DNA of 54,019 nucleotides from Candidatus Omnitrophota bacterium (GCA_016783555.1 JADHWH010000004.1:1-54019), one strand, 5' to 3'. Shown: positions 2,656 to 52,463, counted from the stretch's first letter. Translations and numbers: made by a program. Notes: a model not told the origin generated them from the letters alone.

Positions 2656-3216
2656 ATGAACCCCGTTAGACCTACAGGTTCTAATGGGGGCAGGAGGTCT
2701 AACGGGGTGAAGATAAAAGGCAAGGTTCATAAATTCGGCAATAACGTAAATACAGACGAAATAATACCAGCGTCGTATCTAAATACCACGGATCCCGGAC
2801 AGCTGGCGAGGCATTGCATGGAAGGCATAGATAAGAATTTTTCAAAAATTGTAAAGAGGGGCGATGTTATAGTAGCCGGCAGAAATTTCGGGTGCGGGTC
2901 AAGCCGCGAGCACGCCCCATTATCGATAAAGGGGGCCGGCGTATCGTGTGTCATAGGCAGGAGTTTCGCAAGGATATTTTACAGAAACTGCATAAATATC
3001 GGACTCCCTATATTGGAGTCGAAAGAAGCGGCAAGAAGGATAAGGGTGAATGATAGACTTAAAATAGATACAAAGAGAGGTACGATAGAAGATATTACCT
3101 TAAAGAAGACATTCTATGCGCAGAAATTCCCGCCTTTTATGCAGCAGATGATTTCCGCCGGCGGGTTGATGAAATATATAAAAAAGAAGAAGAGTAAAAT
3201 CCGCCTTCGCACATGA
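2656..3216 (+). CDS. leuD: 3-isopropylmalate dehydratase small subunit; start either ATG 2656 (reads through a family B element) or regenerated GTG 2707
   Basis: NTDEIIPA, NFGCGSSREHA, FARIFYRNCINIG. Confidence 0.93.
   Translation: MNPVRPTGSNGGRRSNGVKIKGKVHKFGNNVNTDEIIPASYLNTTDPGQLARHCMEGIDKNFSKIVKRGDVIVAGRNFGCGSSREHAPLSIKGAGVSCVIGRSFARIFYRNCINIGLPILESKEAARRIRVNDRLKIDTKRGTIEDITLKKTFYAQKFPPFMQQMISAGGLMKYIKKKKSKIRLRT
2661..2707. mobile_element. Family B miniature element, copy B1 (target duplication TGAA)
   Basis: TGAA-CCCCGTTAGACCT...AGGTCTAACGGGG-TGAA inside the leuD start ATGAAG. Confidence 0.85.
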
Positions 3217-3327
3217 ATGCGAAAATGAAAGTTTGGCTACGGCGGATTTAATTCGCACGTTCAAAGAAAGGAAAGGAGGAAGTTCAATTTACGAAAATCT
3301 TATATTTTCGTAAATTGAGTGCTCATT
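3192..3327. mobile_element. Family A four-way-junction element, partial copy A1 (right half)
   Basis: AAATCCGCC/GGCGGATTT hairpin, then AATTC-GCAC...TCAATTTACGAAAAT/ATTTTCGTAAATTGA-GTGC-TCATT as in the full copies. Confidence 0.75.
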
Positions 3328-3331
3328 AAAG

Positions 3332-4381
3332 ATGTATAAGATCGCTGTGATACCCGGAGACGGCACGGGGCCTGAGGTTGTAAACGAAGGCTTAAAGGTT
3401 CTCGATGCAGTATCAAGAAAGGCCAATTTTAAATACGATACAAAAATGTTCGACTATGGCGGAGAGCGCTATCGAAAGACAGGCGTGACTCTGCCAGACT
3501 CTGCGTTAGAAGAATTTAAGAAATTTGACGCGATATATCTGGGCGCGGTAGGCGACCCGGAGGTAAAACCGGGGATATTAGAAAAAGGGCTCCTTTTGAA
3601 ACTCAGATTCGGCCTCCAGCAGTACATTAATCTAAGGCCTGTTAAGCTCTATCCCGGCGTCTGGACGCCCGTCAGGGATAAGGGACCGGAAGATATAGAT
3701 TTTGTAGTGGTAAGAGAGAATAACGAAGGGCTCTATGTAGGCGAAGGCGAGTTTAAAGATAAGGGCACGGAGAATGAGATCGCCCTTCAGATTTCACGTA
3801 ACACAAGGAAGGGCGTTGAGAGATGCATACGCTTTGCCTTCGAATATACTAAAAAGAGAAATAAGAGGAAGAAGCTTACGCTCTGCGGCAAGACCAATGT
3901 CTTAACGTACGCATGGGATTTGTGGGAGAGGACGTTTTACGAAGTAGCGAAGGAATATAAAGAGATCCAGACCGATTATACCCATGTAGACGCGACATGC
4001 ATGTGGATGATCAAGAATCCCGAATGGTTCGACGTGATAGTTACGGATAATATGTTCGGGGATATAATAACAGATCTGGGCGCCATGATCCAGGGCGGTA
4101 TGGGTATAGCGGCGGGCGGAAACCTTAATCCCGAAGGCGTCTCTATGTTCGAGCCGATAGGCGGCTCCGCGCCTAAATATACGGGAAAAAATGTTATAAA
4201 CCCTTTAGCCGCGATATGCGCCCTCGAGATGCTGCTGGAGCATATCGGAGAAGAGAAGGCCGCGTCGATGATAGAGAGATCGGTTATACGGGTGACTTCG
4301 GAGAAATTAAAAAGCCTTTCAGCGGGGAAGATGGGCTGCACTACCCAGGAAGTAGGGGATTTAGTAGCTGAATTTTTATAA
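3332..4381 (+). CDS. leuB: 3-isopropylmalate dehydrogenase
   Basis: IAVIPGDGTGPEV, NLRP, NMFGDIITD, FEPIGGSAP. Confidence 0.9.
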   Translation: MYKIAVIPGDGTGPEVVNEGLKVLDAVSRKANFKYDTKMFDYGGERYRKTGVTLPDSALEEFKKFDAIYLGAVGDPEVKPGILEKGLLLKLRFGLQQYINLRPVKLYPGVWTPVRDKGPEDIDFVVVRENNEGLYVGEGEFKDKGTENEIALQISRNTRKGVERCIRFAFEYTKKRNKRKKLTLCGKTNVLTYAWDLWERTFYEVAKEYKEIQTDYTHVDATCMWMIKNPEWFDVIVTDNMFGDIITDLGAMIQGGMGIAAGGNLNPEGVSMFEPIGGSAPKYTGKNVINPLAAICALEMLLEHIGEEKAASMIERSVIRVTSEKLKSLSAGKMGCTTQEVGDLVAEFL

Positions 4382-4389
4382 AACGATAT

Positions 4390-4453
4390 GTCATTGCGAG
4401 CGAAGCGAAGCAATCTCTAGAGATTGCTTCGGCGCTTCGCGCCTCGCAATGAC
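4390..4453. repeat. GTCATTGCGAG-type (CGTC-class REP-like) palindrome
   Basis: GTCATTGCGAG...GAAGCAATCTCT/AGAGATTGCTTC...CTCGCAATGAC. Confidence 0.85.
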
Positions 4454-4461
4454 TGGGGGTT

Positions 4462-5493
4462 GTGATGAAGAATTGGAATGTGGCAGTAATGGGGGCGACC
4501 GGCGCCGTAGGCTCAAGGTTCCTCTCTATATTGGAGGAGAGGAATTTTCCGATAAAGAGCATAAAACTTCTGGCATCCAAACGCTCTAAAGGCAAGTCCA
4601 TTAAGTTCAAGAAGAGATCCTGCGAAGTAGAAGAGCTGACCCATGACTCATTCAAGGGAGTGGAACTCGTCTTATCAAGCGCAGGCGCCGAGAGGAGCTT
4701 AGAGTATCTACCCAGCGCCGTTAAGGCGGGCTGTATATGTATAGATAATTCAAGCGCGTTCCGCATGGATGAAAATGTCCCGTTAGTTGTACCTGAGGTA
4801 AACCCCCATGCCGTAAAGCGCCACAGAGGCATAATAGCCAACCCTAACTGTTCGACTATACAGCTGGTAGTAGCGCTGTGGCCGCTTCATAAAAAGGCTA
4901 AGATTAAGAGAGTTGTAGTCTCTACCTATCAGTCTGTATCAGGCGCAGGCGGTAAGAATATATCCGAGTTAAAAGAGCAGGTCTCTTACCTTCAAAAGGC
5001 CAAAGACGCGGATTTAATAGGTAAGCATACCGTGGGTAAATCCTGTATAAAGGAATTCCCGCACCAGATCGCGTTTAATCTGATCCCTCATATTGACAAA
5101 TTTCTGGATAACGCTTATACCAAAGAAGAGATGAAGATGGTCAATGAGACCAGAAAGATTATGGAGGACGATTCTATAGGGATAACCGCCACCGCTATAA
5201 GGGTTCCCGTCTATTATGCCCATTCCGAGAGCGTAAATATTGAGACTGAAGATAAATTAAGCCGAGATGAAGCAAAAGGGATTCTCTCCCGCGCGCCGGG
5301 AGTAACCCTCATAGATGATCCGCAAAATTTTAGATACCCTATGCCCCTAGATGCGGAGGGAACCGACGGTGTCTTTGTAGGAAGGGTTCGCGAAGATGAG
5401 TCTATACCAAACGGCCTTAACCTTTGGATTGTAAGCGACAACCTGCGAAAAGGCGCCGCCTTAAACGCCATCCAGATAGCTGAACTTCTTTAA
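4462..5493 (+). CDS. asd: Aspartate-semialdehyde dehydrogenase
   Basis: GATGAVG, IDNSSAFRM, ANPNCSTIQ, DNLRKGAALNA. Confidence 0.96.
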   Translation: MMKNWNVAVMGATGAVGSRFLSILEERNFPIKSIKLLASKRSKGKSIKFKKRSCEVEELTHDSFKGVELVLSSAGAERSLEYLPSAVKAGCICIDNSSAFRMDENVPLVVPEVNPHAVKRHRGIIANPNCSTIQLVVALWPLHKKAKIKRVVVSTYQSVSGAGGKNISELKEQVSYLQKAKDADLIGKHTVGKSCIKEFPHQIAFNLIPHIDKFLDNAYTKEEMKMVNETRKIMEDDSIGITATAIRVPVYYAHSESVNIETEDKLSRDEAKGILSRAPGVTLIDDPQNFRYPMPLDAEGTDGVFVGRVREDESIPNGLNLWIVSDNLRKGAALNAIQIAELL

Positions 5494-5501
5494 TATAAAA
5501 G

Positions 5502-6403: not shown

Positions 6404-7141
6404 ATGAGCAGATTTTACATAAGACCGGATAATATAAAAGAGAATAAGATTCGCGTTAACGGCGATGAGGCGCATCACATACTGCGCGTGATGAGGCTGG
6501 AGATCGGCGACGAGATAACGGCCTTCGACGGCACAGGCAGAGAATATTACGGGATAATAGAGGAGGTTTCAAAAAAGGGCGCAGTGATTAAGATAGAAAA
6601 AAGCAGTATGGCCAAAAGCGGCAAGAGGTATACCATAACACTCGCCCAGGCCGTACCTAAGATGGAGAAGATGGATTACATAATACAAAAGACCACTGAG
6701 CTGGGTATAGACTCGATAATACCCATGAATACAAAAAGGACTATTGTAAGATTAAACAAAGAGAAGATGCTGTCAAAACAGAGAAGGTGGAAGAGGATCG
6801 CCGCGGAGGCGTCAAAACAATGCGGCAGGGTTAACATTACCGAAATAGAGAGTTATACAAGCCTTAACGGGGTATTGGAAAGAGGCGATAGGTATGATCT
6901 CGCGCTTATGCCATCCGTCTTTTCCTGCGAAAAAAAGAGCCTCAAAAAGATCTTGCCCGATTTCCAGGGTAGATCCATCCTTTTGCTTATAGGGCCGGAG
7001 GGTGGATTCGACGCCGATGAACACAAGAGGGCGTCAGAAAACGGCGTTATCTTTGTCTCGCTCGGCGAGAACATACTCAGGTGTGACACCGCCGCCATAG
7101 CGGCGGTAGCTATGCTAAAATTTTCCTTAAGCGACATATGA
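6404..7141 (+). CDS. rsmE: 16S rRNA m3U1498 methyltransferase
   Basis: HHILRVMRL, QKTTELG, EASKQCGR, IGPEGGF, LGENILRCDTA. Confidence 0.95.
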   Translation: MSRFYIRPDNIKENKIRVNGDEAHHILRVMRLEIGDEITAFDGTGREYYGIIEEVSKKGAVIKIEKSSMAKSGKRYTITLAQAVPKMEKMDYIIQKTTELGIDSIIPMNTKRTIVRLNKEKMLSKQRRWKRIAAEASKQCGRVNITEIESYTSLNGVLERGDRYDLALMPSVFSCEKKSLKKILPDFQGRSILLLIGPEGGFDADEHKRASENGVIFVSLGENILRCDTAAIAAVAMLKFSLSDI

Positions 7142-7142
7142 T

Positions 7143-7258
7143 CCCCGTTAGACCTCAAGGAGGTTTAACGGGCGAGGAGGTCTAACGGGGTGATCCCCGT
7201 TAGACCTCTAACGGGAAGTGAAACTCACGAGCTCTAATAGATAGGAGGTCTAACGGGG
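7143..7258. mobile_element. Two tandem family B elements, B2a 7143-7190 and B2b 7195-7258 (target duplication TGAT x3)
   Basis: A-TGAT-[CCCCGTTAGACCT..AGGTCTAACGGGG]-TGAT-[..]-TGAT-AAG at the rsmE-stop/mtaB-start ATGA overlap. Confidence 0.85.
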
Positions 7259-8556
7259 TGATAAGAAAAGTCAAATTTTATACACTGGGGTGTAAGACCA
7301 ACCAGTATGAGACACAGGCCATAAGGGAGAGTATAATTTCTAAAAAACGCTTTGAGGAAACGCCGCCCTCGGAAAAAGCCGATATCTATATAGTAAATAC
7401 ATGCACAGTTACCGCTAAGGCAGACAGGAATTCGCGCTGGACGATAAATCATTGCCACAGAGAGAATCCCAATGCAAAAATTTTAGTCACAGGCTGCCTT
7501 GCTGAGCTGGACGATAAGATGATAAAGGACCTGCCCGGCGTCTTTTTAATAGCAAAGAACAGAGATAAGCACCGGATCAAGGATTTTCTAAATACGACAT
7601 ACGACATACGACATACGATATACGGGAGACAAGATTACACCCCATTAAAGATCAGCGGCTTTCAAAATCGGACCAAGGCATTTATAAAGATACAGGACGG
7701 CTGCGATAACTTCTGCGCCTACTGTAAAGTTCCGCTGGCAAGAGGAAGGTCAAGAAGCAGAGACGTAGAGGGCATTGTGGAGGAAGTAGCAAGGCTTTTG
7801 GATAGCGGCTTTAAGGAGCTCGTTTTGACGGGGATATGCCTTGGAGATTGGGGCAAGGGGCTTGAGGGAGATTTCAAACTGCCGGAACTCCTTGAAAAAA
7901 TCACAAAAATCAATAGAGATTTTAGAGTGCGCTTAAGCTCGATAGAGCCAAATTTGATTGAAGATAACTTAATAGAAAAGGTCGCAAGAGATGATAAGAT
8001 TTGCAATCATCTGCATATACCCCTGCAGAGCGGCAGCGATAAAATACTTAAAACTATGAGAAGGCCCTATACCGCGAATGAATACCTCCGGACTATTAAG
8101 AAGATACGAAAGGCGATACCGGCAATTTCAATAACCTCCGATGTGATGGTCGGGTTTCCCGGAGAGTCTCTCAAGGATTTTAACGCAACCGTCAGGCTGA
8201 TAAAAGATATTTTTCCTTCGAGACTTCATATTTTTCCCTATAGTAAAAGAAGAGGAACGCCGGCATATATATTGAATGACAAGCTTACACCGAAAGAAAA
8301 GAAAGCCAGGAGAGAGATCCTTGTAAATTTGTCAGAGAAATTATCCTATAAATACAGGAGACGCTTTTTAGGCAAGACCGTAAGCGGTCTTATCGAAGCG
8401 AAGAGGGATCCCGGGACAGACCTCCTTACCGGCTACACTGATACTTACATAAGATTTTTACTGAAAGGGGATGACTCGCTTATGGGTAAAATAACTGCGT
8501 TGAAAATCAATAAACTGGCTGGAAAATCTACCTTTTGTAAGCATTTATCTGGCTAA
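7258..8556 (+). CDS. mtaB: tRNA ms2t6A37 methylthiotransferase (radical SAM)
   Basis: TLGCKTNQYE, NTCTVT, CDNFCAYC radical-SAM motif, RLSSIEP; follows rsmE. Confidence 0.92.
   Translation: MIRKVKFYTLGCKTNQYETQAIRESIISKKRFEETPPSEKADIYIVNTCTVTAKADRNSRWTINHCHRENPNAKILVTGCLAELDDKMIKDLPGVFLIAKNRDKHRIKDFLNTTYDIRHTIYGRQDYTPLKISGFQNRTKAFIKIQDGCDNFCAYCKVPLARGRSRSRDVEGIVEEVARLLDSGFKELVLTGICLGDWGKGLEGDFKLPELLEKITKINRDFRVRLSSIEPNLIEDNLIEKVARDDKICNHLHIPLQSGSDKILKTMRRPYTANEYLRTIKKIRKAIPAISITSDVMVGFPGESLKDFNATVRLIKDIFPSRLHIFPYSKRRGTPAYILNDKLTPKEKKARREILVNLSEKLSYKYRRRFLGKTVSGLIEAKRDPGTDLLTGYTDTYIRFLLKGDDSLMGKITALKINKLAGKSTFCKHLSG
7592..7624 (+). repeat. Heptamer tandem repeat (ATACGAC)n inside mtaB
   Basis: ATACGAC ATACGAC ATACGAC ATACGAT ATACG. 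Confidence 0.85.
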
Positions 8557-12825: not shown

Positions 12826-12855
12826 TACGGCAAAGGAGAAGCCGCGCTACATGAA

Positions 12856-12916
12856 CCCCGTTAGACCTCATAGGAGGTCGGCGGGGTGAAACGGAAGTAA
12901 TGGAGGTCTAACGGGG
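12856..12916. mobile_element. Family B miniature element, copy B3 (target duplication TGAA) in the rpoD start codon
   Basis: A-TGAA-[CCCCGTTAGACCT..AGGTCTAACGGGG]-TGAA-GAG; orphaned AAAGGAG site upstream of old ATG 12851. Confidence 0.85.
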
Positions 12917-14469
12917 TGAAGAGACACAAAGAGATAGAAGAACTTTTAAAGGTCGGCAAAAAGAAAGGCTGCCTTACTTACGAAGAGTTAAACAACATAC
13001 TTCCCGATACGATAGTGTCGTCCGAAGAGCTGGATAAGATATTTACCCTATTGGGCGATGAGAATATAAAGGTTGTCGACTCAAAAGAGGCTGCTTTAGA
13101 GCTTGAGAAGAAATCATCCGAGGAGGAATCGACGGAGCAGAAGAAGGCTCCTAAACGGGAAGGGCATGCCGATAAGCTGGTTCAGATGGATGACCCCGTA
13201 AAGATGTATCTCAGGCAGATGGGCCAGATACCCCTTTTGACAAGAGAGGAAGAGCTCAGGCTGGCTGAGAAGATTAAAAGTACGGAGTTTAAATTCAGTA
13301 GAGCGGTTTTAGAATGCAAGCCTGCCAGGAAAGAGGCCATAACGGTCGCGAAAGATATCCTTAGCAGCAAAAAGAGCATGGATGATTTTATCAACATAGA
13401 CCCAAAACCTGACAGGAAAAAGATCAAGGCCAACCTTAGGAAATTCGTCAGGCTCGCAAGGAGAGTCAGAAAAGGCCGGCGTATAGCCGAGATCTTGTCC
13501 GGTTTTAATTTGTGCACAACCGTGATCGAAGAGATATTCATCGCTATGAGGGCCAAGACTGCTGAGATTGAACAGATCGATAAGAATCTCAAGAGATCAC
13601 GGAAAAAAAGGGCACACGGCGAGGTTTCAAAACTTAGAAGAAAGAGGCGCACCATAGAGGCGGAATTCGGCCTTAAGCACCCGGAGATAAAAGAGGCCGT
13701 TAAGGCGATTAGGGTAAAAGAAGCGAAATTTAACAAGGCCAAGAAGGAGTTGGTGGCGGCCAATCTAAGATTGGTTGTGAGCATCGCGAAGAAATACACC
13801 AACAGAGGCTTATCGTTCCTCGATCTTATACAAGAGGGAAATATAGGTCTCATGAAGGCGGTTGATAAGTTCGAGTATGAGAGGGGATATAAATTTTCTA
13901 CATACGCGACATGGTGGATAAGGCAGGCGATAACGCGCTCCATAGCCGACCAGTCCCGCACTATAAGGATTCCCGTGCATATGACCGAGACTATAAACAG
14001 ACTTATACGCGTCTCGCGCGCTCTTGTCCAAGAGAACGGAAAAGAGCCCACGCCTGAAGAAATATCGTATGATATGAAGATGCCCGTAGATAAGGTAAGG
14101 GGGATTCTCAAGATAGCCCAGGAGCCCATATCGTTACAGACGCCGATTGGCGATGAAGGCGATACGCACTTCGGCGATTTTATAGAGGACAAACGCGCCG
14201 TCTCGCCCGCAAACGCAACGGCCTATTCTATGCTAAAGGAGCAGGTAGGAGACGTCCTTTCCACGTTGACCGACCGGGAGAAGAAAGTCCTCCGGCTTCG
14301 TTTCGGTATAGGCGACGGCTATCCCCGCACCCTTGAAGAGGTCGGCTCCATGTTCAATGTCACAAGAGAGAGGGTGCGTCAGATAGAGGCAAAGGCCTTA
14401 AGAAAACTGCGCCATCCTACCAGAAGCAGGAAGCTCAAGAATTTCTTGGCCTTAAGCGCAGGCCAGTAA
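12916..14469 (+). CDS. rpoD: Primary RNA polymerase sigma factor (GTG start formed by the element end)
   Basis: [51 protein letters not shown]. Confidence 0.98.
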
Positions 14470-20304: not shown

Positions 20305-20448
20305 CTTCTCGATAAAGGCAAACTGTCTGAAAGGATAGGGCGCAAAGCTACGAGCCTAAAGCGAGGTCACGCTAAAGCGTGACCTACAGCAGAAGTCACA
20401 CTAAAGTGTGACCTACAGCTGCTAAGGTAGTCGGGCTGCCGAAAGAAG
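20305..20448 (+). ncRNA. Cyclic di-GMP-I (GEMM) riboswitch with REP-like insertions in the variable loop
   Basis: GGCAAAC-TGTCT-GAAA-GGATA-GGGCGCAAAGCTACGAGCCTAA...GGTAGTCGGGCTGCCGAA; P1 CTTCTCG/CGAAAGAAG. Confidence 0.85.
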
Positions 20449-21558: not shown

Positions 21559-21635
21559 GGGGCCATAGCTCAATTGGTTAGAGCATCTGACTCATAATCA
21601 GGTGGTTCAAGGTTCAAGTCCTTGTGGCCCCACCA
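21559..21635 (+). tRNA. tRNA with CAT anticodon, most likely tRNA-Ile2 (lysidine)
   Basis: GGGGCCA/TGGCCCC acceptor stem, TCTGA-CTCATAA-TCAGG anticodon arm, GGTTCAAGTCC T arm, encoded CCA. Confidence 0.93.
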
Positions 21636-21831: not shown

Positions 21832-21908
21832 GGGCGATTAGCTCAGTCGGTTAGAGCGTGTGCCTCACATGCACAAGGTCAGTGGTTCGAGCCCACTATC
21901 GCCCACCA
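21832..21908 (+). tRNA. tRNA-Val(CAC)
   Basis: GGGCGAT/ATCGCCC acceptor stem, TGTGC-CTCACAT-GCACA anticodon arm, encoded CCA. Confidence 0.95.
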
Positions 21909-23359: not shown

Positions 23360-23805
23360 GAGGGGTAGATCGGGTGGTCGCCCTTGACATTCGCGCATTG
23401 CGCGAATGTCAAGGGAGGAAAGTCCGAGCTCCATAGAGCGGCGTAGCGGGTAATGCCCGTCGGTCGAAAGGCCAGGATCAGAGCAACAGAGACAACGACT
23501 CCCCCCGTCTCGCTATTGTAAAATACGGCGAGACGGGGCAGAGGGTGAAAAGATGCAATCTCTACGCGGAGCAAGACCAAATAGGTCCCGAATCACCCTT
23601 CGACAAGCTCAGGGTGATCCTGAGCAAGGTCGCCGAAGGCGACCGCGTCGAAGGATCAGAAGCTGCTCGTTTCTACCGGTAAGACGTCGGTGTCGGGACG
23701 GGTTAGGTCGCTTGAGCCTTGTGGCAACATAAGGCCCAGATGGATGATCACTAACAGGCATCTAAGGTGCTTGCTTACAGAACTCGGCTTACAGATCTGC
23801 CCCTC
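23360..23805 (+). ncRNA. rnpB: RNase P RNA (type A-like, with insertions; P13/P14 apparently absent)
   Basis: P1 GAGGGGTAGATC/GATCTGCCCCTC, GAGGAAAGTCCGAGCTC, GCAACAGAGAC, GGAGCAAGACCAAATAGG, ACAGAACTCGGCTTAC. Confidence 0.95.
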
Positions 23806-23812
23806 ATTATTA

Positions 23813-31101: not shown

Positions 31102-32511
31102 ATGTTTAATATAAGCGATATATTAAAGGCTACAGGCGGAACACTATTATCTAAAGCTAAATCGCGTATGCCTATCCCCGGTCTATCTATCGATTCACGC
31201 AGCATAAAAAAGGGAGAGCTTTTTATAGCCATAAAAGGAGACCGTTTTGACGGCCACGATTTCATAGGCGATGCCCTGAAGAAGGGCGCCTCAGGCGCCG
31301 TCTTAAAGAGAATGCCTGCCGCGAAAATAGCCGATACGCAAATCATAATAAAGGTAAAAGAGACCACAAGGGCGCTGGGCGATATCGCCGCCTTTCACCG
31401 CAGGCGGTTCAACATCCCGGTAATCGGCATAACCGGCTCAAACGGAAAGACCACCGTGAAAGATATGGCATCTTTTATATTAGAGAAGAGATACAATGTC
31501 TTGAAGAACAATGGCACAGAGAATAATTATATAGGAGTGCCGCTTACATTGCTGAGGTTGCAAAAGAGGCATTCGACAGCCATCCTTGAGATGGGCGCAA
31601 ACCACCACGGCGAGATCGACAGGCTTACCGAGATAGTTAGGCCCACTATAGGGTTGATTACGGGTATCGGGCCATCGCACCTTGAATTCTTTAAGGATGA
31701 ACTCGGTGTACTAAAGGCAAAGACGGAGATGGTCCGCAGATTATCAAAAGAGGACTTGGTTATATTAAACGGCGATGATAAACTGCTTTCACGTATAAAG
31801 CCGCGTTGTAAAAAGATAGAGTTCGGACTTAAGGCCGGCAATGACTACAGGGCAACAGATATAAAAATAGATAAGAAGATATCCTTTCTCTTAAACGGCG
31901 TCTACCGCCTTAAGATAAAGACCCTGGGATGGCATAACCTATATAACGCCCTGGCCTCGATTGTTGTCGCGCGTCGTCTGGGAATCGATATGTCGGTGAT
32001 TAAGAATGCGCTTTTGGATTTTAAGACCCCTTCGATGCGCATGGAACTAAAGAGAGTAAAGGGTATAAATATTATAGACGACGCGTATAACTCTAATCCG
32101 CTTTCACTCAAATGGGCGATAGAGACACTTTCGCAATTCAAGACAAAAGGAAGGCGGATATTGGTATCGGGCGATATGCTGGAGCTGGGAGATAAATCCA
32201 AACTTTTTCATACCCTGGCCGGCCGCGCCGTAGCATCTTCGTCAGTAGATAGCTTTATCGGCGTAGGGAGGTTTTCGCGATTTGCCATAGACGGAGCCAG
32301 CCGCGCCGGCATGAAGAGGCAAAGCCTCTGGTCGTGTTCTACCGCAGAGGAGGCATCCGGCGTGCTGAAGAGAGTTGCAAAACGCGGAGATGCGGTATTG
32401 GTCAAGGGATCTCGCGGCATGTGTATGGAGAAGATAATAGAGAGGTTATCAAATGAGGCCATGACTTACGGAGCGCCAAAAGCGCGACGTAAGTCATGTG
32501 GCCGAATTTGA
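31102..32511 (+). CDS. murF: UDP-MurNAc-tripeptide--D-Ala-D-Ala ligase (last ~19 codons and stop come from element A4)
   Basis: ITGSNGKTTVK, DDAYNSNP, GDMLELG, VKGSRG. Confidence 0.96.
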   Translation: MFNISDILKATGGTLLSKAKSRMPIPGLSIDSRSIKKGELFIAIKGDRFDGHDFIGDALKKGASGAVLKRMPAAKIADTQIIIKVKETTRALGDIAAFHRRRFNIPVIGITGSNGKTTVKDMASFILEKRYNVLKNNGTENNYIGVPLTLLRLQKRHSTAILEMGANHHGEIDRLTEIVRPTIGLITGIGPSHLEFFKDELGVLKAKTEMVRRLSKEDLVILNGDDKLLSRIKPRCKKIEFGLKAGNDYRATDIKIDKKISFLLNGVYRLKIKTLGWHNLYNALASIVVARRLGIDMSVIKNALLDFKTPSMRMELKRVKGINIIDDAYNSNPLSLKWAIETLSQFKTKGRRILVSGDMLELGDKSKLFHTLAGRAVASSSVDSFIGVGRFSRFAIDGASRAGMKRQSLWSCSTAEEASGVLKRVAKRGDAVLVKGSRGMCMEKIIERLSNEAMTYGAPKARRKSCGRI

Positions 32512-32884
32512 CCCTTGACATTTTGCGTATGAATACAAAATATTATTTCTATATTCTAGAATGCAATGATAATAGAAAATATTATGGCTGCACAAACAAT
32601 TTAAACAGACGTCTTGAGGATCATTTGAAAGGTAAGGTGCAGGCTACTAAGTACAGACAGCCTGTAGAGTTAATTTACTATAAGGAATGTAATTCACGAC
32701 CAGAAGCGTTTAGGCTGGAAATGAAGTTTAAAAATGGAAAGACTAGAAAGAGTACCATAGATAAACTTATCAATTCATTTTCTAAGACAAAATGTCAAGG
32801 GTTTAATTCGCACCTTCATAGAAGAGAAACGGAGGAGATAGAGTTACGAAAAATCAGAGATTTTTCGTAACTCTAGTGCTCATT
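32452..32884. mobile_element. Family A four-way-junction element, copy A4, carrying a GIY-YIG nuclease gene in the arm-3 loop
   Basis: Same AATGA|GGCC|GAATT|GCAC junction; arm 3 ACCCTTGACATTTTG (32511-32525)/CAAAATGTCAAGGGT (32788-32802) encloses ~260 bp of coding DNA. Confidence 0.88.
32529..32870 (+). CDS. Small GIY-YIG nuclease (Slx1/YhbQ-UPF0213-like); alternative start ATG 32496
   Basis: YFYILEC..KYYGCTNNLNRRLEDH..G..TKYRQP..LIY..EAFRLEMKFK; visibly AT-richer than the neighbouring genes. Confidence 0.88.
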   Translation: MNTKYYFYILECNDNRKYYGCTNNLNRRLEDHLKGKVQATKYRQPVELIYYKECNSRPEAFRLEMKFKNGKTRKSTIDKLINSFSKTKCQGFNSHLHRRETEEIELRKIRDFS

Positions 32885-37646: not shown

Positions 37647-39032
37647 GTGCAGGAGATGTTAAATAAGAGCGCGAGGATACATTTTGTAGGGATAGGCGGC
37701 ATAGGCATGAGCGCCCTGGCCCAGGTGCTTTTATCCAGAGGCTATATCGTAAGCGGCTCAGATATAAACCTTAATAATCTGACGAGGCTTGTGGAATTTA
37801 AAGGCGGCAGGATATACAAGGGGCACGATAGAAAGAACGTGGGCGACGCAGAGATCGTCGTCTATTCCACGGCTGTATCCAAGGATAACCCGGAGTTGCT
37901 GGAGGCGGCGAAGCGCCATCTTAAGATATTGCACAGGGGCGAACTTCTGGGTGAATTGATGAAGGATAAGATCGGTGTTGCCGTAACCGGGGCGCACGGA
38001 AAGACTACCACCACCTCGATGCTTTCGGATATAATGATAAAGGCGCGCTTAGACCCCGTCTGCATATTAGGCGGGGAGTCGGTAAATTTAAGAAGTAATG
38101 CCTATGCGGGTAAGGGTAAGTATCTGATCGCCGAGGCGGATGAGAGCGACGGTTCTCACCTTTATCTCAACCCCAAGTTCGCCATATTGACTAATGTAGA
38201 CCGCGAACACGTCGATTACTACGAGAACATGGAGGAGCTTGTAAAAATAAATAGATCATTTTTGAAAAGGATTCATCCGGACGGCATCTTCTTCGGATTG
38301 ATCGATAACGAATTTATTAGAAAGATCCTCCTTCATTATGACCGTAGATTCGCTACATTCGGCCTGTCGAAAGAGGCCGACCTTCATGCGGCCAATATCC
38401 ATATGGAAGGAATGATTTCACGTTTTGATTGTATCTACCACAAAGAAAACCTGGGCACTATTAATATTAAGATACCCGGCATCCATAATGTGCTAAACGC
38501 CCTTGCGGCTTCTATCTTTGCGCTCCATATCGGAATAGATTTTAATGTCATAAGAGATGCGCTTTCTCTGTTTAAGTCGTCAAAACGCCGATTTGAGGTC
38601 TATCCCGATACCGACGGCATTACTCTGGTGGAAGACTACGCGCATCACCCGACGGAAATAAGCGCCGCGCTTGAAGCCTGTAGGCTGCTTAAGCCGCGCA
38701 GACTTATAACTGTCTTTCAGCCGCATCGGTATACCCGCACAAAGGCCCTGTCGAATGAATTTGGTTTATGTTTCGGTTTAAGCGACGAATTGATACTGAC
38801 GAATATATACGCAGCCAGCGAACCGCCGATAGAAGGCGTGACAGTAAAGAATATCTACGACAAAGTCCTGGAGAATAATTTTGAAAATGTGCATATAATG
38901 CCGAAAGAGAATATAGCCGATTACCTTTATAACTCTTCAGAGGACGGCGACCTTATAGCCGTATTGGGGGCGGGGGACATATCAGAGGTTGCGAAAGAGT
39001 TGGCGCAGAGGTTTAAAGATGAACCCCGTTAG
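37647..39032 (+). CDS. murC: UDP-MurNAc--L-alanine ligase
   Basis: GIGGIGMS, GAHGKTTT, EADESD, DYAHHPTE, FQPHRYTRT. Confidence 0.97.
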   Translation: MQEMLNKSARIHFVGIGGIGMSALAQVLLSRGYIVSGSDINLNNLTRLVEFKGGRIYKGHDRKNVGDAEIVVYSTAVSKDNPELLEAAKRHLKILHRGELLGELMKDKIGVAVTGAHGKTTTTSMLSDIMIKARLDPVCILGGESVNLRSNAYAGKGKYLIAEADESDGSHLYLNPKFAILTNVDREHVDYYENMEELVKINRSFLKRIHPDGIFFGLIDNEFIRKILLHYDRRFATFGLSKEADLHAANIHMEGMISRFDCIYHKENLGTINIKIPGIHNVLNALAASIFALHIGIDFNVIRDALSLFKSSKRRFEVYPDTDGITLVEDYAHHPTEISAALEACRLLKPRRLITVFQPHRYTRTKALSNEFGLCFGLSDELILTNIYAASEPPIEGVTVKNIYDKVLENNFENVHIMPKENIADYLYNSSEDGDLIAVLGAGDISEVAKELAQRFKDEPR

Positions 39033-39129
39033 ACCTTTGAAAGATGACAAGAAGGTCTAACGGGGTGAACCCCGTTAGACCTTTGAAAGATGACGAAGAG
39101 GTCTTATGGGGTCAGGAGGTCTAACGGGG
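39024..39129. mobile_element. Two tandem family B elements, B4a 39024-39065 and B4b 39070-39129 (target duplication TGAA x3)
   Basis: A-TGAA-[TIR..TIR]-TGAA-[TIR..TIR]-TGAA-AAG in the murB start; supplies the murC stop (TAG). Confidence 0.85.
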
Positions 39130-40040
39130 TGAAAAGAGACTTTAAAAAGGACTTGAGAGGATCGCTAAAGGGTTTCATATCTTTTAATGAATATTTAAGC
39201 GCGCATACCACATTTAAGATAGGGGGAAGGCCGCGCGTCTGGGTCGAGCCCGATTCTATCGAAGACTTAAGAAGCGCCCTCGAAATTTTTGGAAGGATAA
39301 AACTAAAGACTTTTTTAATAGGAAACGGCTCGAATGTATTGGCACGTGACGGCAGGCTCAATAGAGCCGTTATAAAATTATCCACCCCGCCTTTTAAAAA
39401 TCTGATTTTCGGCAAGGGTCATATTATTTGCGGCTGCGGCCATACCCTCCCCGGCCTTATCAGAAAGTGCATAGATAGGGGGTTGGCCGGCCTAGAGGGG
39501 CTTGCCGGCATACCCGGCAGTGTCGGCGGCGCCATTATGACGAACGCGGGCGGGATCGGCATGAGGAGCATATTGGATACCGTCGAGTGGATTAAGGTTA
39601 TGGATTATAAGCAAAGGAAGGTATCTTCGATTAAGAAGAAGAGACTGAGATACAATTACAGAGACTCCGACCTCTCAAAGTATGTGATATTAGAGGCGAA
39701 GATTTTGTTAAAGAAGGAAGCCCCGGATGCTATAGGCGAAAGGTATGATAGATTCTTGAGGCAAAAACTGGCTACGCAGGACTACAGACTGCCGAGCGCG
39801 GGTTGTATATTTAAGAATCCGAAAGAGTCAGGCCTGACAAGCGGCCAGATTTTAGAAAAGTGCAGACTAAAAGGGCTGAAGATAGGAGACGCAGAAGTAT
39901 CACGCAGGCACGCCAATTTTATCGTAAATAAAAGAAAAGCGAAATTCAAGGATGTAATGTCATTGATTAAGCTGGAACAGAGGCTGGTAAAGAGGAATTT
40001 CGGCATATGGCTGGAACCGGAAATAGAGATAGTAAAGTAA
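39129..40040 (+). CDS. murB: UDP-N-acetylenolpyruvoylglucosamine reductase (probable GTG start at 39129)
   Basis: HTTFKIGG, GNGSNVL, GIPGSVGGA, SAGCIFKNP, HANFIVN. Confidence 0.95.
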   Translation: MKRDFKKDLRGSLKGFISFNEYLSAHTTFKIGGRPRVWVEPDSIEDLRSALEIFGRIKLKTFLIGNGSNVLARDGRLNRAVIKLSTPPFKNLIFGKGHIICGCGHTLPGLIRKCIDRGLAGLEGLAGIPGSVGGAIMTNAGGIGMRSILDTVEWIKVMDYKQRKVSSIKKKRLRYNYRDSDLSKYVILEAKILLKKEAPDAIGERYDRFLRQKLATQDYRLPSAGCIFKNPKESGLTSGQILEKCRLKGLKIGDAEVSRRHANFIVNKRKAKFKDVMSLIKLEQRLVKRNFGIWLEPEIEIVK

Positions 40041-49040: not shown

Positions 49041-49421
49041 ATGGATAAAAGGGAACTCGGAAGGTTTAAAAAGAGACTGCTGAAGGACCGCGCCGATATC
49101 CTCGGGGGTGTGGATAAGATCACCGAAGAGACGCTGAAGAAGTCACAGCGCGATGCGTCCGGCGATTTATCCGGTTATACCTTTCACATGGCGGATATGG
49201 CGACAGACAACTATGACCGTGAGTTCTCTTTAGGTATAGCAGACAATGAACGTGAAACCCTTAGAAAGATAGACGATGCGCTTAGGAGGGTAGGAGACAA
49301 CACGTACGGTAAATGTCTTTCCTGCGGAAAAAGAATCGCAAAAAAACGCCTTATGGCGGTCTGTCACGCGGAATACTGCAAGAAATGCCAAGAGAAAGAA
49401 GAAGCTCAGAACGAGGAATAA
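49041..49421 (+). CDS. TraR/DksA family C4 zinc-finger protein
   Basis: HMADMATD coiled-coil tip, CLSC..CKKC. Confidence 0.9.
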   Translation: MDKRELGRFKKRLLKDRADILGGVDKITEETLKKSQRDASGDLSGYTFHMADMATDNYDREFSLGIADNERETLRKIDDALRRVGDNTYGKCLSCGKRIAKKRLMAVCHAEYCKKCQEKEEAQNEE

Positions 49422-49867: not shown

Positions 49868-49879
49868 CCAGGGATCTTT

Positions 49880-50593
49880 ATGCACAAAATCCTCTTTGAA
49901 ATCGGGCCGCTTACCGTATATTCTTACGGCACCTTCATCGCGCTCGGTTATTTGACAGCGACCATTCTTGTTCTAAGGGGCTGCCCTAGATACGGATTTC
50001 CCAAAGATAAGATGTGGACTCTTCTTACGCTTATTCTCATCTTCGGGCTTATAGGGGCGCGCCTTTTGAACGTCATCTTAAAATTCAAGTTCTATATGGA
50101 GGCCCCCTTGAGCATGATATTTCTGCATAGAGGGGGTTTGGCGATTCAGGGAGGCATCGTCGGCGGTATCGGTATAAGCATATTCTATCTTTTTAAAAAT
50201 AGACTGTCGGTGTGGAAGACGGGAGATTTAATACTTCAAAATCTGCCTTTGGGCCAGGCCATAGGAAGGATAGGCTGCTATTTAAACGGATGCTGTTTCG
50301 GAAGATGGGGGTTGCCGACCCAGCTCTTTATGTCGGCGGGGTTTTTTATCACCTTTATAATTTTAAAATATTTGGCTAAGAAGAGACCCTCTTTCGACGG
50401 CAGCGTCTTTATATCCTATTTTCTTATCTATCCGGCCGTCAGGTTTTTTATCGATTTTTTAAGGGGGGATCTGAGGCCGGTCTTCATGGGTCTTACAGAG
50501 TCGCAGTATATCAGCCTTCTCTTTTTTATCGCAGCGTTTTTTATTTATATCCTTAAGAAAAGACGGCATAATTTTCAAAAGGAAAGAAGTTGA
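49880..50593 (+). CDS. lgt: Prolipoprotein diacylglyceryl transferase
   Basis: YSYG, IGARL, GQAIGRIGCYLNGCCFG, RFFIDFLRGD. Confidence 0.92.
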   Translation: MHKILFEIGPLTVYSYGTFIALGYLTATILVLRGCPRYGFPKDKMWTLLTLILIFGLIGARLLNVILKFKFYMEAPLSMIFLHRGGLAIQGGIVGGIGISIFYLFKNRLSVWKTGDLILQNLPLGQAIGRIGCYLNGCCFGRWGLPTQLFMSAGFFITFIILKYLAKKRPSFDGSVFISYFLIYPAVRFFIDFLRGDLRPVFMGLTESQYISLLFFIAAFFIYILKKRRHNFQKERS

Positions 50594-51483
50594 AAAATTT
50601 TTCATTTACGGCAGAAGATAAGGATGACAAAAAGAGGCTCGATCTTTTTTTAGTCGACAGGCTCGGTAAAGATTATTCCCGCTCTTTCCTCCAAAAGCTG
50701 ATTCAAGAGGGATACGTTCTTCTTGACAAAAAGACCGCAAAGAGAAACTCAAGAATAAAACCGGGCGATGATATAGAGCTTACCGTCCCGCCGCCGCAAG
50801 AGACAGAGATTATCCCGGAGGATATATCCGTCAATGTAGTATTTGAGGATGAGCATCTTTTAATTGTTGATAAGCCGGCCGGCATGGTAGTCCATCCCGC
50901 CGCAGGAAACCCCTCGGGCACCCTCCTTAACGCGCTTATGTCATACTGTAAAGAGCTTTCTTCTATTGGCGGGAGGCTCCGCCCCGGCATAGTGCATAGG
51001 TTGGATAAAGATACTTCGGGGCTTCTTGTAGTCGCGAAAAACGATTACGCGCATAACTATCTTTCGACCCAGTTTAAAGACCACACTACAAAACGCAAGT
51101 ACATCGCTTTTGTAAGAGGGGTAGTAGAGTTGGACAATGGGACGATAGACCTTCCGATCGGAAGAGACAAAAGAGATAGGCAAAAGATGGCGGTAGGCTT
51201 TACTGAATCGCGGACCGCGGTGACGCATTATAAGGTGTTGAAGAGATTTAATGAGTATACTATGCTCGAGCTCCGTTTAGAGACGGGCAGGACTCACCAG
51301 ATAAGGGCCCACATGCAATATCTGGGCCACCCTTTATTGGGAGATAAGAAATACGGTAAGGTTCACGAAAAGATTAAACGCCAGGCCCTGCATGCGGCGA
51401 CGCTGGGATTTAAACATCCCGCTACAAATAAGTTCATGGAATTCTCATCCGAGCTTCCGGAGGATATGAAGCGGCTTATGTGA
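50590..51483 (+). CDS. rluD: RluA/RluD family 23S rRNA pseudouridine synthase
   Basis: S4 domain, DKPAGMVVHP, VHRLDKDTSG, TGRTHQIR. Confidence 0.92.
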   Translation: MKNFSFTAEDKDDKKRLDLFLVDRLGKDYSRSFLQKLIQEGYVLLDKKTAKRNSRIKPGDDIELTVPPPQETEIIPEDISVNVVFEDEHLLIVDKPAGMVVHPAAGNPSGTLLNALMSYCKELSSIGGRLRPGIVHRLDKDTSGLLVVAKNDYAHNYLSTQFKDHTTKRKYIAFVRGVVELDNGTIDLPIGRDKRDRQKMAVGFTESRTAVTHYKVLKRFNEYTMLELRLETGRTHQIRAHMQYLGHPLLGDKKYGKVHEKIKRQALHAATLGFKHPATNKFMEFSSELPEDMKRLM

Positions 51484-51532
51484 CTTATATAATTTCTTGC
51501 AATAATGATGTTCTATGATATAATTAGCTAAT

Positions 51533-52396
51533 ATGATGCCGGATAAATTGAATAGAAATTTTTTAATAGGTCTTTCGCTTTTGATAATCGCCAGCGTATT
51601 GCTTTTAAGCAGCACGGTGGCATTTTATATTTTAAAGGAAGCGGAAAAGAGTAAATTAACACTGCTTAAAAATGAGCTGGAGAATGTGGTTGAGATGAAG
51701 GATATCATAGCCGAGGACTTGGAAGAGATTAAGGCGAAGAACAGCGAGCTCGAATTAAAATTAAGCTCTACAAGTGATCAGGCAAGAAAGATTTCGGAAG
51801 AGTTTTCAAAAGAGAAAGAGATAAAAAATCTTATGACGTCGCAGCTGGAGCATGAGAGGAAGAAGACCGAGGAGATGATGTCTCAAGTTTTAAAAGAAAA
51901 AGAAGAGCGCCTGAATCTCTCCTATAAATTATCCAAGGTCGAAGAGGATTACCGCAGGCTTAAAGAGCAGTTTGAATTGCTGCTGGAGGCGAAAGAGGCG
52001 CTGGAAGCGAAGGTCAGGTCTATGATGGAGAAGAAAGGCATAGAGCTTGAGAAGATAGAGGTAAAGAGGGGTTACCGCGTAGAAGAACCGAAGGAAGAAA
52101 AGATTTTTAAACCGCAGATACCCGGCAAAAAAGAGAGCGCCTCGAAGCCCGACACGAAGACAACTGTTTTGGTTGTAAACAGGCAATTCAACTTTATCGT
52201 TACCAACATAGGGAAACTGGACGGGGCAGGCATTGGGTCTGAGTTAGACGTTTATAGGGGCGGCGAGTTTATCGCAAAGACGAGGATAGAAAAACTTTAT
52301 GACAAGATGTCGGCCGCTACTATCTTACCGGAGTGGAAAAGGGCCAGGATAAAAGAAGGAGATCAGGTTTACCCTGTTAGACCTCCTGATAATTAG
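51533..52396 (+). CDS. Membrane-anchored coiled-coil hypothetical protein with C-terminal beta domain
   Basis: N-terminal TM, long heptad region, VLVVNRQFNFIVTNIG..G beta domain; promoter TTGCAA..TATAAT at 51497-51524. Confidence 0.75.
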   Translation: MMPDKLNRNFLIGLSLLIIASVLLLSSTVAFYILKEAEKSKLTLLKNELENVVEMKDIIAEDLEEIKAKNSELELKLSSTSDQARKISEEFSKEKEIKNLMTSQLEHERKKTEEMMSQVLKEKEERLNLSYKLSKVEEDYRRLKEQFELLLEAKEALEAKVRSMMEKKGIELEKIEVKRGYRVEEPKEEKIFKPQIPGKKESASKPDTKTTVLVVNRQFNFIVTNIGKLDGAGIGSELDVYRGGEFIAKTRIEKLYDKMSAATILPEWKRARIKEGDQVYPVRPPDN

Positions 52397-52438
52397 AACT
52401 GGTGAGGAGATCTAATTATATGAAGAGGTCTAACGGGG
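52372..52438. mobile_element. Family B miniature element, copy B5 (target duplication TTTA)
   Basis: TTTA-[CCCTGTTAGACCT..AGGTCTAACGGGG]-TTTA within the 3' end of the 51533 ORF. Confidence 0.85.
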
Positions 52439-52463
52439 TTTACATTTCCCAATAGATCCTTCC

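Follow-up and report, generated by a model that had tools for sequence, protein, structure and literature searches.

Start-codon-associated short inverted-repeat elements in a Candidatus Omnitrophota genome, probable gene-less derivatives of a GIY-YIG nuclease element

The window analysed here is the whole 54,019-nt stretch JADHWH010000004.1:1-54019 of Candidatus Omnitrophota bacterium GCA_016783555.1. Seven copies of a very short element, termed Family B, occupy five sites in it (Table 1), all where a sequence-only reading had placed them, and their 13-bp inverted ends, CCCCGTTAGACCT and AGGTCTAACGGGG, are exact or carry one mismatch. With up to two mismatches allowed, 16 arm matches were counted in the window versus 0.94 expected, and a count of 16 was reached in none of 100 shuffles. 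The flanking tetranucleotides are, as that reading had it, TGAA, TGAT, TGAA, TGAA and TTTA, with the TGAT at mtaB and the last TGAA, at murB, each being common to both members of a tandem pair. Four of the five sites are start codons, those of leuD, mtaB, rpoD and murB (names from NCBIfam), and excision of the element with one 4-mer restores the proposed N-termini MKIKG (LeuD-family small subunit), MIRKV (MtaB), MKRHK (RpoD) and MKRDF (MurB). The fifth insert lies away from any start codon, in the final codons of a 287-codon ORF (51533 ORF), where ...ISQ* becomes PVRPPDN*. Rfam 15, applied to the window at gathering score, gave four matches (RNase P, two tRNAs and a c-di-GMP-I riboswitch), none of them at an element.

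Table 1. Family B copies and the start codons they occupy in the window
Position	Strand	Feature	Adjoining repeat or remark
2656..2660	+	Old ATG of LeuD-family gene (2656-2658)	Overlaps left TGAA (2657-2660)
2661..2707	+	47-bp element, exact arms, internal degenerate right arm	Right TGAA (2708-2711)
7138..7142	+	Old ATG of mtaB (7138-7140)	Left TGAT (7139-7142)
7143..7190	+	48-bp element, upstream tandem member	Junction TGAT (7191-7194)
7195..7258	+	64-bp element, gene-proximal at mtaB	Right TGAT (7259-7262)
12851..12855	+	Old ATG of rpoD (12851-12853)	Left TGAA (12852-12855)
12856..12916	+	61-bp element at rpoD	Right TGAA (12917-12920)
39019..39023	+	Old ATG of murB (39019-39021)	Left TGAA (39020-39023)
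39024..39065	+	42-bp element without GGAGG, upstream tandem member	Junction TGAA (39066-39069)
39070..39129	+	60-bp element, gene-proximal at murB, internal degenerate right arm	Right TGAA (39130-39133)
52368..52442	+	67-bp element (52372-52438), TTTA on both sides	One left-arm mismatch

The suggestion that the right end supplies GGAGG ahead of a new GTG holds for the gene-proximal copy at all four starts and fails for the 42-bp copy and the fifth-site copy. The new GTG lies at 2707-2709 in the LeuD-family gene, with GGAGG 9 nt upstream, at 12916-12918 in rpoD, and at 7258-7260 and 39129-39131, where it opens mtaB and murB, respectively. At the LeuD-family gene the old ATG reads through in frame (MNPVRPTGSNGGRRSNGV-KIKG...), because the 47-bp element and its 4-mer together make 51 nt. 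For mtaB, a mini-ORF from the old ATG, MIPVRPQGGLTGEEV, ends at a TAA (7183-7185) within the right arm of the 48-bp element, and the rpoD mini-ORF, MNPVRPHRRSAG, terminates 29 nt upstream of the new GTG. Pairing between the two inverted ends gives a hairpin stem; the proposed burial of the ribosome-binding site in this stem is reproduced by RNA folds, which predict 14-15 bp over that site, with z from -2.7 to -8.7 in RNA and DNA folds.

The genome-wide scan covered 1,773,865 bases in 78 contigs of this metagenome-assembled genome (MAG; 93% complete) and returned 75 exact left and 77 exact right arms and a total of 88 sites, in which a locus with identical flanks on two contigs (C28/C56) is probably one site counted twice. 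The 4-bp flank is identical on both sides at 84 of the 88 sites, and since 16 different strings occur, it is a true duplication rather than a fixed element end. TGAA or TGAG accounts for 68 of the 84 duplicated flanks, the rarer strings including CTAG, TTAG, CCCG, TTCG and CTCG, and beyond the 4-mer the flanks of near-identical copies differ. Consensus arms are present in 65 of 93 paired elements, and 19 of the 28 variant-arm elements remain perfect inverted repeats through matched changes (27 positions matched versus 10 unmatched). The short copies span 29-153 bp, with highly variable interiors and many subfamilies, one of which, that of the 64-bp element at mtaB, is present at 10 places; they have no enzyme coding capacity, only relic mini-ORFs. 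The 42-bp copy lacking GGAGG is always an upstream tandem member. Six tandem arrays have an internal TGAT junction, although five are bounded on the outside by TGAA, and for these arrays copying from a donor array fits better than simple insertion.

With gene starts defined from ORFs only, the last base of the element and the duplicated TG open a long ORF at 72 of the 88 sites, and about four fifths of all sites coincide precisely with the RTGAR of a gene start. The start-codon enrichment suspected from the window is extreme across the genome: among the 25,610 TGAR sites present once the elements were taken out, 67 of 1,365 start-like sites are occupied, compared with 1 of 1,495 in non-coding sequence and 1 of 22,750 in the remainder, so that start-like sites make up 67 of the 69 occupied ones (start-like versus non-coding, odds ratio 77, p 5e-21). 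The 8-mer TGAAGATA is occupied at 11/24 start-like sites, 0/15 non-coding sites and 0/174 sites inside ORFs, and an extended preference for TGAAGATA was seen as well (11/64 versus 7/586). Target flanks resemble the right end of the element weakly (4.25 versus 3.69 of 14 positions, against a contaminated background). Orientation is similarly constrained: of the 72 start sites, 64 have GG ahead of the gene-proximal arm and one has it ahead of the distal arm; four of the eight exceptions are in-frame read-throughs. The initiation signal that takes the place of the original one is GGAGG-N9-GTG, or ATG in a subfamily with T...A ends, and the old start codon is still intact at 70 of the 72 sites. 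At close to half of the start sites, a stop and a start codon overlap as ATGA, and the duplicated TGA there also preserves the stop of the upstream gene. Of the 16 non-start copies, about nine are at a stop codon or within 17 nt of one, while the internal copies (four of 88 sites) are all in frame and without stops.

Alignment to orthologous loci in same-family genomes of related genera (G001-G005) revealed the empty sites expected of mobile insertions. No element is present at leuD in four of four readable orthologues, or at mtaB and murB in five of five each; for rpoD, three of five orthologues reach the start and have no element, the other two contigs ending there. Where the start can be read, these orthologues of the four genes show an ordinary ATG at the position predicted for it. 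All of the tests by which the sequence-only reading could have been refuted (flank duplication, start-codon enrichment and empty sites) thus turned out in its favour. Identical ends and the same placement were identified in MAGs of several phyla, at unrelated genes, and 41 of 44 paired copies in the genomes of other species are on ATG or GTG. No movement of the inserts was observed directly: contigs from two sequencing runs (X1, X2) bridge the rpoD element unchanged, the leuD or rpoD insert is unchanged in contigs from three other samples (2020-2024), and overall the inserts are unchanged across samples of four studies from 2020-2024. No empty-site junction was seen in the contigs of the three other samples, although contigs drop rare variants.

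A longer copy with the same ends, the search for which the sequence-only reading had proposed, was found upstream of dnaE (G000:C76:22518-22788). It is the only full-length copy in the 78 contigs, measures 271 bp, and has exact arms and TGAA flanks. Its sole gene encodes a 92-residue, single-domain GIY-YIG nuclease (PF01541, 52.2 bits against a cut-off of 22.6, E 7.5e-14; no other domain found). Start codon, ribosome-binding site and stop codon are all absent from the element itself: the ORF begins at the host ATG, with MNPVRP encoded by the 4-mer and left arm, and its stop is a TGA that overlaps the rebuilt GTG, the right arm encoding GGLTG. Among the best 120 homologue representatives, 104 start with MNPVRP or MSPVRP, 110 end in xGLTG and 84 are 91 residues long, even though their cores share only about 65% identity. 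In the short copies, which are probably deletion derivatives of the 271-bp element, the mini-ORFs retain MNPVRP...(NRLK)GGLTG. Y13, Y24, G26, H38 and E58 are invariant across 27 homologues and R34 is at least 90% conserved; Y13, Y24, R34, H38 and E58 are positions of the type that we take to be catalytic in GIY-YIG enzymes. The predicted structure is beta-beta-alpha-alpha-beta-alpha-alpha (mean pLDDT 85) with unstructured arm-encoded termini, and the nearest solved structures are UPF0213 proteins and Slx1, a structure-specific nuclease. The earlier remark that the window holds no mobilising enzyme is correct for Family B but not for its relatives, a paralogous GIY-YIG mini-gene with different ends being present at 32496-32870. 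Two more arm families in the genome share the Family B layout, and three different arm families each enclose a GIY-YIG gene or relic.

Family B shows terminal inverted repeats, a target duplication of fixed length and variable sequence, small gene-less multicopy members and filled and empty sites, as is characteristic of MITEs. Several known repeats resemble it in part. Rickettsia palindromic elements (RPEs) are reportedly tolerated as in-frame insertions in protein-coding genes, as are the four internal Family B copies, but this mode is a minority for Family B (4/88 sites) and RPEs are not known as start-codon elements. Correia elements duplicate TA and insert between genes. IS200/IS605 and REP/RAYT systems rely on an HUH tyrosine transposase that forms a covalent intermediate, and they produce no target duplication; their ends are not mutual inverted repeats, and the smallest known elements of this kind are about 700 bp, against 271 bp for full-length Family B. 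Bacterial MITEs of the Correia/NEMIS and REP2 type likewise have short inverted repeats and a target duplication, and through co-transcription they change how the following gene is expressed. [quoted passage not shown] The known partners of these repeats are DDE insertion sequences. MIRUs (mycobacterial interspersed repetitive units) share a length of 40-100 bp, tetranucleotide direct repeats, filled and empty sites, co-transcription between operon genes and small ORFs whose ends overlap neighbouring genes (Supply et al. 1997 via Delihas 2011, PMC3184786), but they are variable tandem repeats in Actinobacteria, and that text reports neither a matching nuclease-bearing full-length copy nor strict placement at start codons or a conserved GGAGG-start cassette.

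The closest published relatives, as far as the available text of Chenal et al. (2025, Nat Commun, PMC11893778) extends, are the Ssn nucleases (family cd10448), which cut single-stranded DNA beside the hairpin repeats flanking their own gene, a layout those authors call 'identical to' insertion sequences. In both systems the protein consists of one GIY-YIG domain, with a length of about 92-94 residues, and its gene is flanked on both sides by hairpin-forming repeats amplified through the genome; in that amplification, the very small size and the reading of end hairpins by the enzyme, IS200/IS605 and REP/RAYT systems are also similar (PMC11893778). Unlike Ssn repeats, the Family B arms are not the SRM motif or NTS consensus (PMC11893778), each is half of one long-range stem rather than its own hairpin, and they encode protein termini, with a 4-bp duplication and start-codon placement in addition. 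The genome also carries a canonical Ssn-type copy flanked by GTCATTCCCGCGAAAGCGGGAATC, which matches the NTS consensus as published; the Family B nuclease is 44% identical over 66 residues to this SRM-flanked homologue (E 5e-14). In the available text of PMC11893778 the terms 'start codon' and 'MITE' are absent and mobility is not shown; no description of start-codon targeting by such elements was found in the literature.

Taken together, Family B most probably represents gene-less, MITE-like derivatives of a start-landing 271-bp element with an Ssn/UPF0213/Slx1-like GIY-YIG nuclease. A free-standing homing endonuclease gene moves among alleles at a single locus through repair based on flanking homology and leaves no target duplication, which does not match the 88 unrelated loci and the 4-bp duplication seen here. 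It is unlikely that selection alone created the pattern, with insertion at any T-R-A-R-like 4-mer regardless of genes and survival of gene-sparing copies only. Only the harmless classes survive (oriented starts, gene ends and in-frame internal copies), as reflected in the orientation bias (64/72 versus 1/72), the confinement of copies without GGAGG to in-frame read-throughs or upstream tandem members, the frame of all four internal copies and the proximity of about 9/16 non-start copies to stop codons. However, such selection predicts retention in non-coding DNA at least equal to that at starts, whereas 1/1,495 non-coding and 67/1,365 start-like TGAR sites are occupied and TGAAGATA is empty at all 15 non-coding sites compared with 11/24 filled at start-like ones, and the extended preference for this string points to a sequence choice by the machinery. 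Homing-like copying is no more plausible; here the nuclease would break the 4-mer and repair would copy the element through arm homology or 4-8-nt flank microhomology, so that the 'duplication' would reflect shared flanks. This would suit a nuclease without strand-transfer activity, the prevalence of TGAA/TGAG (68/84), the over-representation of the donor-like flank TGAAGATA, and the six arrays with an identical TGAT and 64-bp unit, five within outer TGAA, as if primed by the right arm from a donor array; yet the 16 duplicated strings, CTAG and CCCG among them, require sites without a pre-existing donor flank, and near-identical copies differ past the 4-mer.

DDE elements typically combine inverted ends and a 4-bp duplication, and a conventional transposase missing from the incomplete assembly (93%, 78 contigs) might move the short copies with the GIY-YIG gene as a passenger. 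This is very unlikely, as no long copy was found (each of the 16 arm pairs that share a 4-mer at a spacing of 300-4,000 bp comes from neighbouring gene-start copies), no unpaired arm lies near a contig end, the last 150 bases holding arms of two complete short elements only, and no DDE-type partner with Family B ends was found in the 78 contigs. Moreover, the arms encode the nuclease N-terminus in 104 and the C-terminus in 110 of the best 120 homologue representatives, and all three arm families hold a GIY-YIG gene or relic. The least likely explanation considered is a domesticated translational leader, in which the host would keep the cassettes as a shared control element of various housekeeping genes, with a leader ORF opening the stem that covers the ribosome-binding site. 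The strong structures (z down to -8.7), the old start codons intact at 70/72 sites and the inserts unchanged across four studies are consistent with it, but the sites are empty in sister genera, the interiors are highly variable with many subfamilies, copies also occur within ORFs and at gene ends, the same element is present in unrelated phyla at unrelated genes, and published Ssn does not bind RNA according to the available text (PMC11893778).

For the nuclease-derived element, the following mechanism is plausible. The nuclease would recognise a hairpin or cruciform formed by the arms and would cut with a 4-nt stagger, host repair and ligation finishing the insertion; to our knowledge, no GIY-YIG nuclease has strand-transfer chemistry and no GIY-YIG enzyme acts as a transposase. 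Target choice may be largely intrinsic to the machinery, with purifying selection clearing wrong orientations and frames afterwards. The earlier reading needs one amendment: rather than being simply replaced, the old start codon continues to open the nuclease ORF or a relic mini-ORF. In the mRNA, the arms would form a stem hiding the new ribosome-binding site, and the mini-ORF crossing the left arm probably melts it, ribosomes from the old start thereby relaying translation to the host gene, which, judging from the sequence, would begin at the rebuilt start codon. The idea that insertion is tolerated thanks to the recreated initiation signal agrees with the orientation of the copies and the signatures of the exceptions, and this rebuilt signal may be what makes insertion tolerable even in essential genes.

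All seven Family B copies placed in the window by the sequence-only reading (42-67-bp inserts with 13-bp inverted arms, at five sites) lie exactly at the positions claimed, and the arms match the window 16 times with up to two mismatches, against 0.94 matches expected and a count of 16 attained in 0 of 100 shuffles. In the host assembly (1,773,865 bases in 78 contigs, GC 45%, 93% completeness; the window is contig C53), exact left and right arms occur 75 and 77 times, respectively. The proposal that each insert is flanked by a 4-bp duplication tracking the local sequence holds genome-wide, with equal 4-mers on both sides at 84 of 88 sites, where each tandem array is counted as one site and one locus sits on two contigs (C28 and C56). 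By orientation, the duplicated 4-mers are TGAA/TTCA at 56 sites, TGAG/CTCA at 12, TTTA/TAAA at five and others at 11 (including CTAG, TTAG, CCCG, TTCG, CTCG and TGAT), and this variety indicates that the duplication reflects local sequence. A 64-bp subfamily in tandem arrays is always preceded by a TGAT junction, including in the five of the six such arrays that have TGAA as their outer flanks; its stand-alone copies have TGAA at both flanks. The TGAT junction in these arrays may result from copying from a donor array.

In contigs from three other samples the leuD or rpoD insert is present without change, and the mtaB tandem interrupts metagenome contigs. Empty-site junctions, lacking the element and one 4-mer, were absent from the contigs of sequencing runs X1, X2, X6 and X7; the junctions listed there are cross-matches to other genomic copies. 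No RNA dataset was listed among the sequencing runs. Empty sites were found, as had been anticipated, in five genomes from other genera of the family, whose orthologues lack the element and have ATG where excision predicts it; for instance, the restored LeuD start MKIKGKVHKFG compares with MKIEGRAHKFG in an orthologue.

The reported placement on start codons extends well beyond the window, where NCBIfam confirmed the four genes concerned as a LeuD-family small subunit, MtaB, RpoD and MurB. At 72 of the 88 sites (one of them, on contig C46, is doubtful) the last base of the element and the next two form a GTG (58 sites) or an ATG (14) opening an ORF of 80 codons or more, the ATG cases being a subfamily whose arms have T as first and A as last base. 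When every element and one 4-mer were deleted in silico and all 25,610 TGAR sites classed, 67 of 1,365 start-like sites proved to be occupied, compared with one of 1,495 non-coding and one of 22,750 other sites. The predicted genome-wide enrichment is thus borne out, with an odds ratio of 626 overall (p 2e-83) and 77 against non-coding sites alone (p 5e-21), the site classes being crude as gene starts were taken from ORFs only. The TGA stop of the upstream gene lies within the duplicated 4-mer, in an ATGA overlap, at 32 of 70 start sites, so that both neighbouring genes retain their signals, and at 20 further start sites the upstream gene ends within 30 nt. Genome-wide, 31 of 131 RTGAR stop/start overlaps are occupied, against a background of crude starts that includes false ones.

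Signs of selection on the surviving copies are seen in orientation, reading frame and proximity to stop codons. A GG before the gene-proximal right arm, which places GGAGG 9 nt ahead of the start, is present at 64 of 72 start sites, and a GG at the equivalent position of the distal arm at only one; at four of the eight sites without the proximal GG, element length allows in-frame read-through from the old ATG. The 42-bp type without GGAGG is found at starts solely as the upstream member of tandems, in five arrays. Mini-ORFs from the old start end in a TGA overlapping the new start (21 sites), in a TAA within the right arm (six) or at an earlier stop (36), or are fused in frame (nine). Among the 16 sites away from starts, four hold in-frame, stop-free inserts inside long ORFs and about nine are at a stop codon or no more than 17 nt from one, including the fifth window site at the end of the 51533 ORF.

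Selection alone, we think, is insufficient, and targeting is largely intrinsic to the machinery. Elements hardly ever occupy TGAR sites in non-coding sequence, and the strongly favoured 8-mer TGAAGATA (11 of 64 occupied sites versus seven of 586 crude background starts) is occupied at 11 of 24 start-like positions, none of 15 non-coding ones and none of 174 inside ORFs. A likeness between the target flanks and the right end of the element was considered as well and rejected (4.25 versus 3.69 of 14 positions, with a background that includes false starts). The right end reads ...ACCTCC on the bottom strand, an anti-Shine-Dalgarno string that might be a clue to targeting, although only a lead.

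In RNA folds, each of the four start regions forms a 14-15-bp stem between left and right arms, predicted to hide part of GGAGG along with the first base of GTG (-32 to -64 kcal/mol, z -2.7 to -8.7), and DNA folds of both strands give the same arm-arm stem; an Rfam search returned no match at the elements. Of the 72 sites, 70 keep an intact old start codon, and at one it has decayed to ATT. As the left arm begins two bases past this codon, a ribosome initiating there must melt the stem, and this opening would relay translation from the old codon to the rebuilt one.

A longer copy with the same ends and an enclosed nuclease, which the sequence-only reading had proposed to look for, was found before dnaE (coordinates in the table). 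Its ORF opens at the host ATG, crosses the element and closes with a TGA overlapping the rebuilt GTG, and the 92-residue product matches the GIY-YIG domain (52.2 bits, E 7.5e-14), with sub-cut-off matches only in an NCBIfam search. UPF0213 proteins are its nearest solved sequences. The AlphaFold model has the expected fold (mean pLDDT 85), and its arm-encoded ends (residues 1-9 and the last four) are unstructured; Foldseek ranks UPF0213 BH0048 first, then Slx1 structure-specific nucleases and HIGLE, and far below them UvrC and I-TevI. There are at least 637 homologous protein clusters. Among the 120 best representatives, 84 have 91 residues, 104 start with MNPVRP or MSPVRP (N or S as second residue corresponding to ATGAA|C or ATGAG|C) and 110 end in xGLTG, while the cores are just about 65% identical, which indicates that throughout the family the target supplies the start codon and the arms supply the termini. 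Mini-ORFs of short copies retain these termini (e.g. MSPVRPLKEVKLTICNRLKGGLTG), and the short copies are therefore internal-deletion derivatives. No conventional transposase was found in a longer copy, as the 16 arm pairs with equal 4-mers 300-4,000 bp apart are all neighbouring gene-start copies; arms within 150 bases of contig ends are only those of two complete short elements.

Ssn nucleases, which are 94 residues long, cleave single-stranded DNA next to the hairpin repeats flanking their genes, a layout whose resemblance to insertion sequences has been pointed out (Chenal et al. 2025, PMC11893778); 'start codon' and 'MITE' do not occur in the main text of that article, whose supplements could list Omnitrophota homologues. 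MIRUs have tetranucleotide repeats and ORFs overlapping adjacent genes, and REP2-type repeats bring a ribosome-binding site and ATG (Delihas 2011, PMC3184786). Full-text literature searches, at the level of listings and abstract openings, returned no inverted-repeat element with a GIY-YIG gene at start codons, and a term search of a 2026 Omnitrophota preprint gave no hit for GIY-YIG, MITE, inverted repeat or palindrome.

Exact arm pairs are present in eight of 41 relatives, and nuclease homologues in 192 of 301 Omnitrophota genomes (E <=1e-8). Among the 29 of 30 fetched nuclease loci that were read (L036 excluded), six have Family B arms and the start-codon layout, and 11 carry arms of the CCCCGTTAGA(G/A)A... 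type, in which the ATG is internal and the stop codon is supplied directly beyond the arm; several of these 11 are located at the TAA of the upstream gene. A scan for GGAGGTCTAACGGGG in one genome per species gave at least 103 loci, with about 1,000 chance matches expected in the collection; at 44 of the 103 listed a left arm lies no more than 150 nt away and the 4-mers are equal, and at 41 of these 44, in other species, an ATG or GTG is completed. The 8-mer TGAAGATA is also found at five of the 44. The titles of the GGAGGTCTAACGGGG records include Omnitrophota, groundwater 'Deltaproteobacteria', Planctomycetia, Nitrospira and Thermodesulfovibrionia.

Other arm families with the same start-codon layout exist in the host genome, namely CCCAGCCCCT / AGGGGCTGGG (10 paired copies) and CCCCGCCCCTCC. 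Their copies include a full-length GIY-YIG copy arranged in tandem with a bare hairpin of 26 bp and a relic ahead of a gene taken, from translation by eye, as that of ribosomal protein L24. The product of a second GIY-YIG mini-gene in the window is 34% identical to the Family B nuclease, and a separate hairpin nearby lengthens the murF reading frame. On contig C46, a gene flanked by inverted copies of GTCATTCCCGCGAAAGCGGGAATC, which fits the NTS consensus (PMC11893778), looks like a canonical Ssn unit. A palindromic repeat in the window, the first bases of which resemble published Ssn-related hairpin repeats, has a summed depth of about 8,700 in run X1 contigs versus about 20 for adjoining sequence, and must therefore be common to very many organisms.

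Coordinates of features in the window and on other contigs (C) of the host assembly (G000)
Feature	Location	Details
Full-length Family B copy	G000:C76:22518-22788	271 bp; exact arms; TGAA flanks
TGAT junction in array	window 7191-7194	
TGAT junction in array	C68 85448	
TGAT junction in array	C68 86698	
TGAT junction in array	C1 13934	
TGAT junction in array	C12 15250	
TGAT junction in array	C78 3636	
Example of TGAAGATA	window 2708-2715	
Further-arm-family locus	G000:C9:6739-7074	
Further-arm-family locus	G000:C59:5741-5830	
Second GIY-YIG mini-gene	window 32496-32870	124-codon ORF; own ATG; between murF and mraY
Its inverted repeats, different from Family B	window, about 32511-32524 and 32791-32805	CCCTTGACATTTTG / CAAAATGTCAAGGG
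Separate hairpin	window 32461-32498	CATGACTTACG...CGTAAGTCATG
GTCATTCCCGCGAAAGCGGGAATC-flanked GIY-YIG gene	G000:C46:9148-9441 (locus L164, 249-542)	97 residues
Palindromic repeat	window 4388-4453	GTCATTGCGAGCGAAGCGAAGCAATC...GATTGCTTCG...CTCGCAATGAC
c-di-GMP-I riboswitch	window 20307-20443	71 bits
tRNA-Met	window 21559-21635	
tRNA-Val	window 21832-21908	
Bacterial RNase P class A RNA	window 23362-23807	220 bits

Insertion at start codons with a rebuilt initiation signal, as originally put forward, is supported by the genome-wide enrichment and the GGAGG orientation and is extended by the full-length nuclease copy, and Family B is a striking, apparently unpublished variant of small hairpin-ended mobile DNA. 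It is possible, if somewhat short of probable, that the 271-bp unit, as a self-sufficient transposable element, represents a new enzymatic class and is smaller than any other known, the smallest known insertion sequences being far larger. Lacking a promoter, ribosome-binding site, start codon and stop codon of its own, this hairpin-ended element would be moved by its 92-residue GIY-YIG structure-specific nuclease together with host repair, the machinery itself would seek out translation-initiation sites, and operon junctions and start-codon usage would have been remodelled on a large scale in Omnitrophota and other lineages. Known transposition enzymes belong to the DDE, HUH, serine, tyrosine and Cas1 classes, and the element would represent a transposon class beyond these if the nuclease truly mobilises it; the published Ssn nucleases would likewise gain a testable role as mobility enzymes. 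For genome annotation, dozens of genes in genomes of this kind carry GTG starts, 'leader' ORFs of 15-25 codons or N-terminal extensions that are by-products of insertion. In evolutionary terms, a quarter of the eligible stop/start overlaps of the host genome have been split by the element. Selfish DNA can occupy the control signals of essential genes harmlessly, by borrowing the start signals of the host and returning a rebuilt copy.
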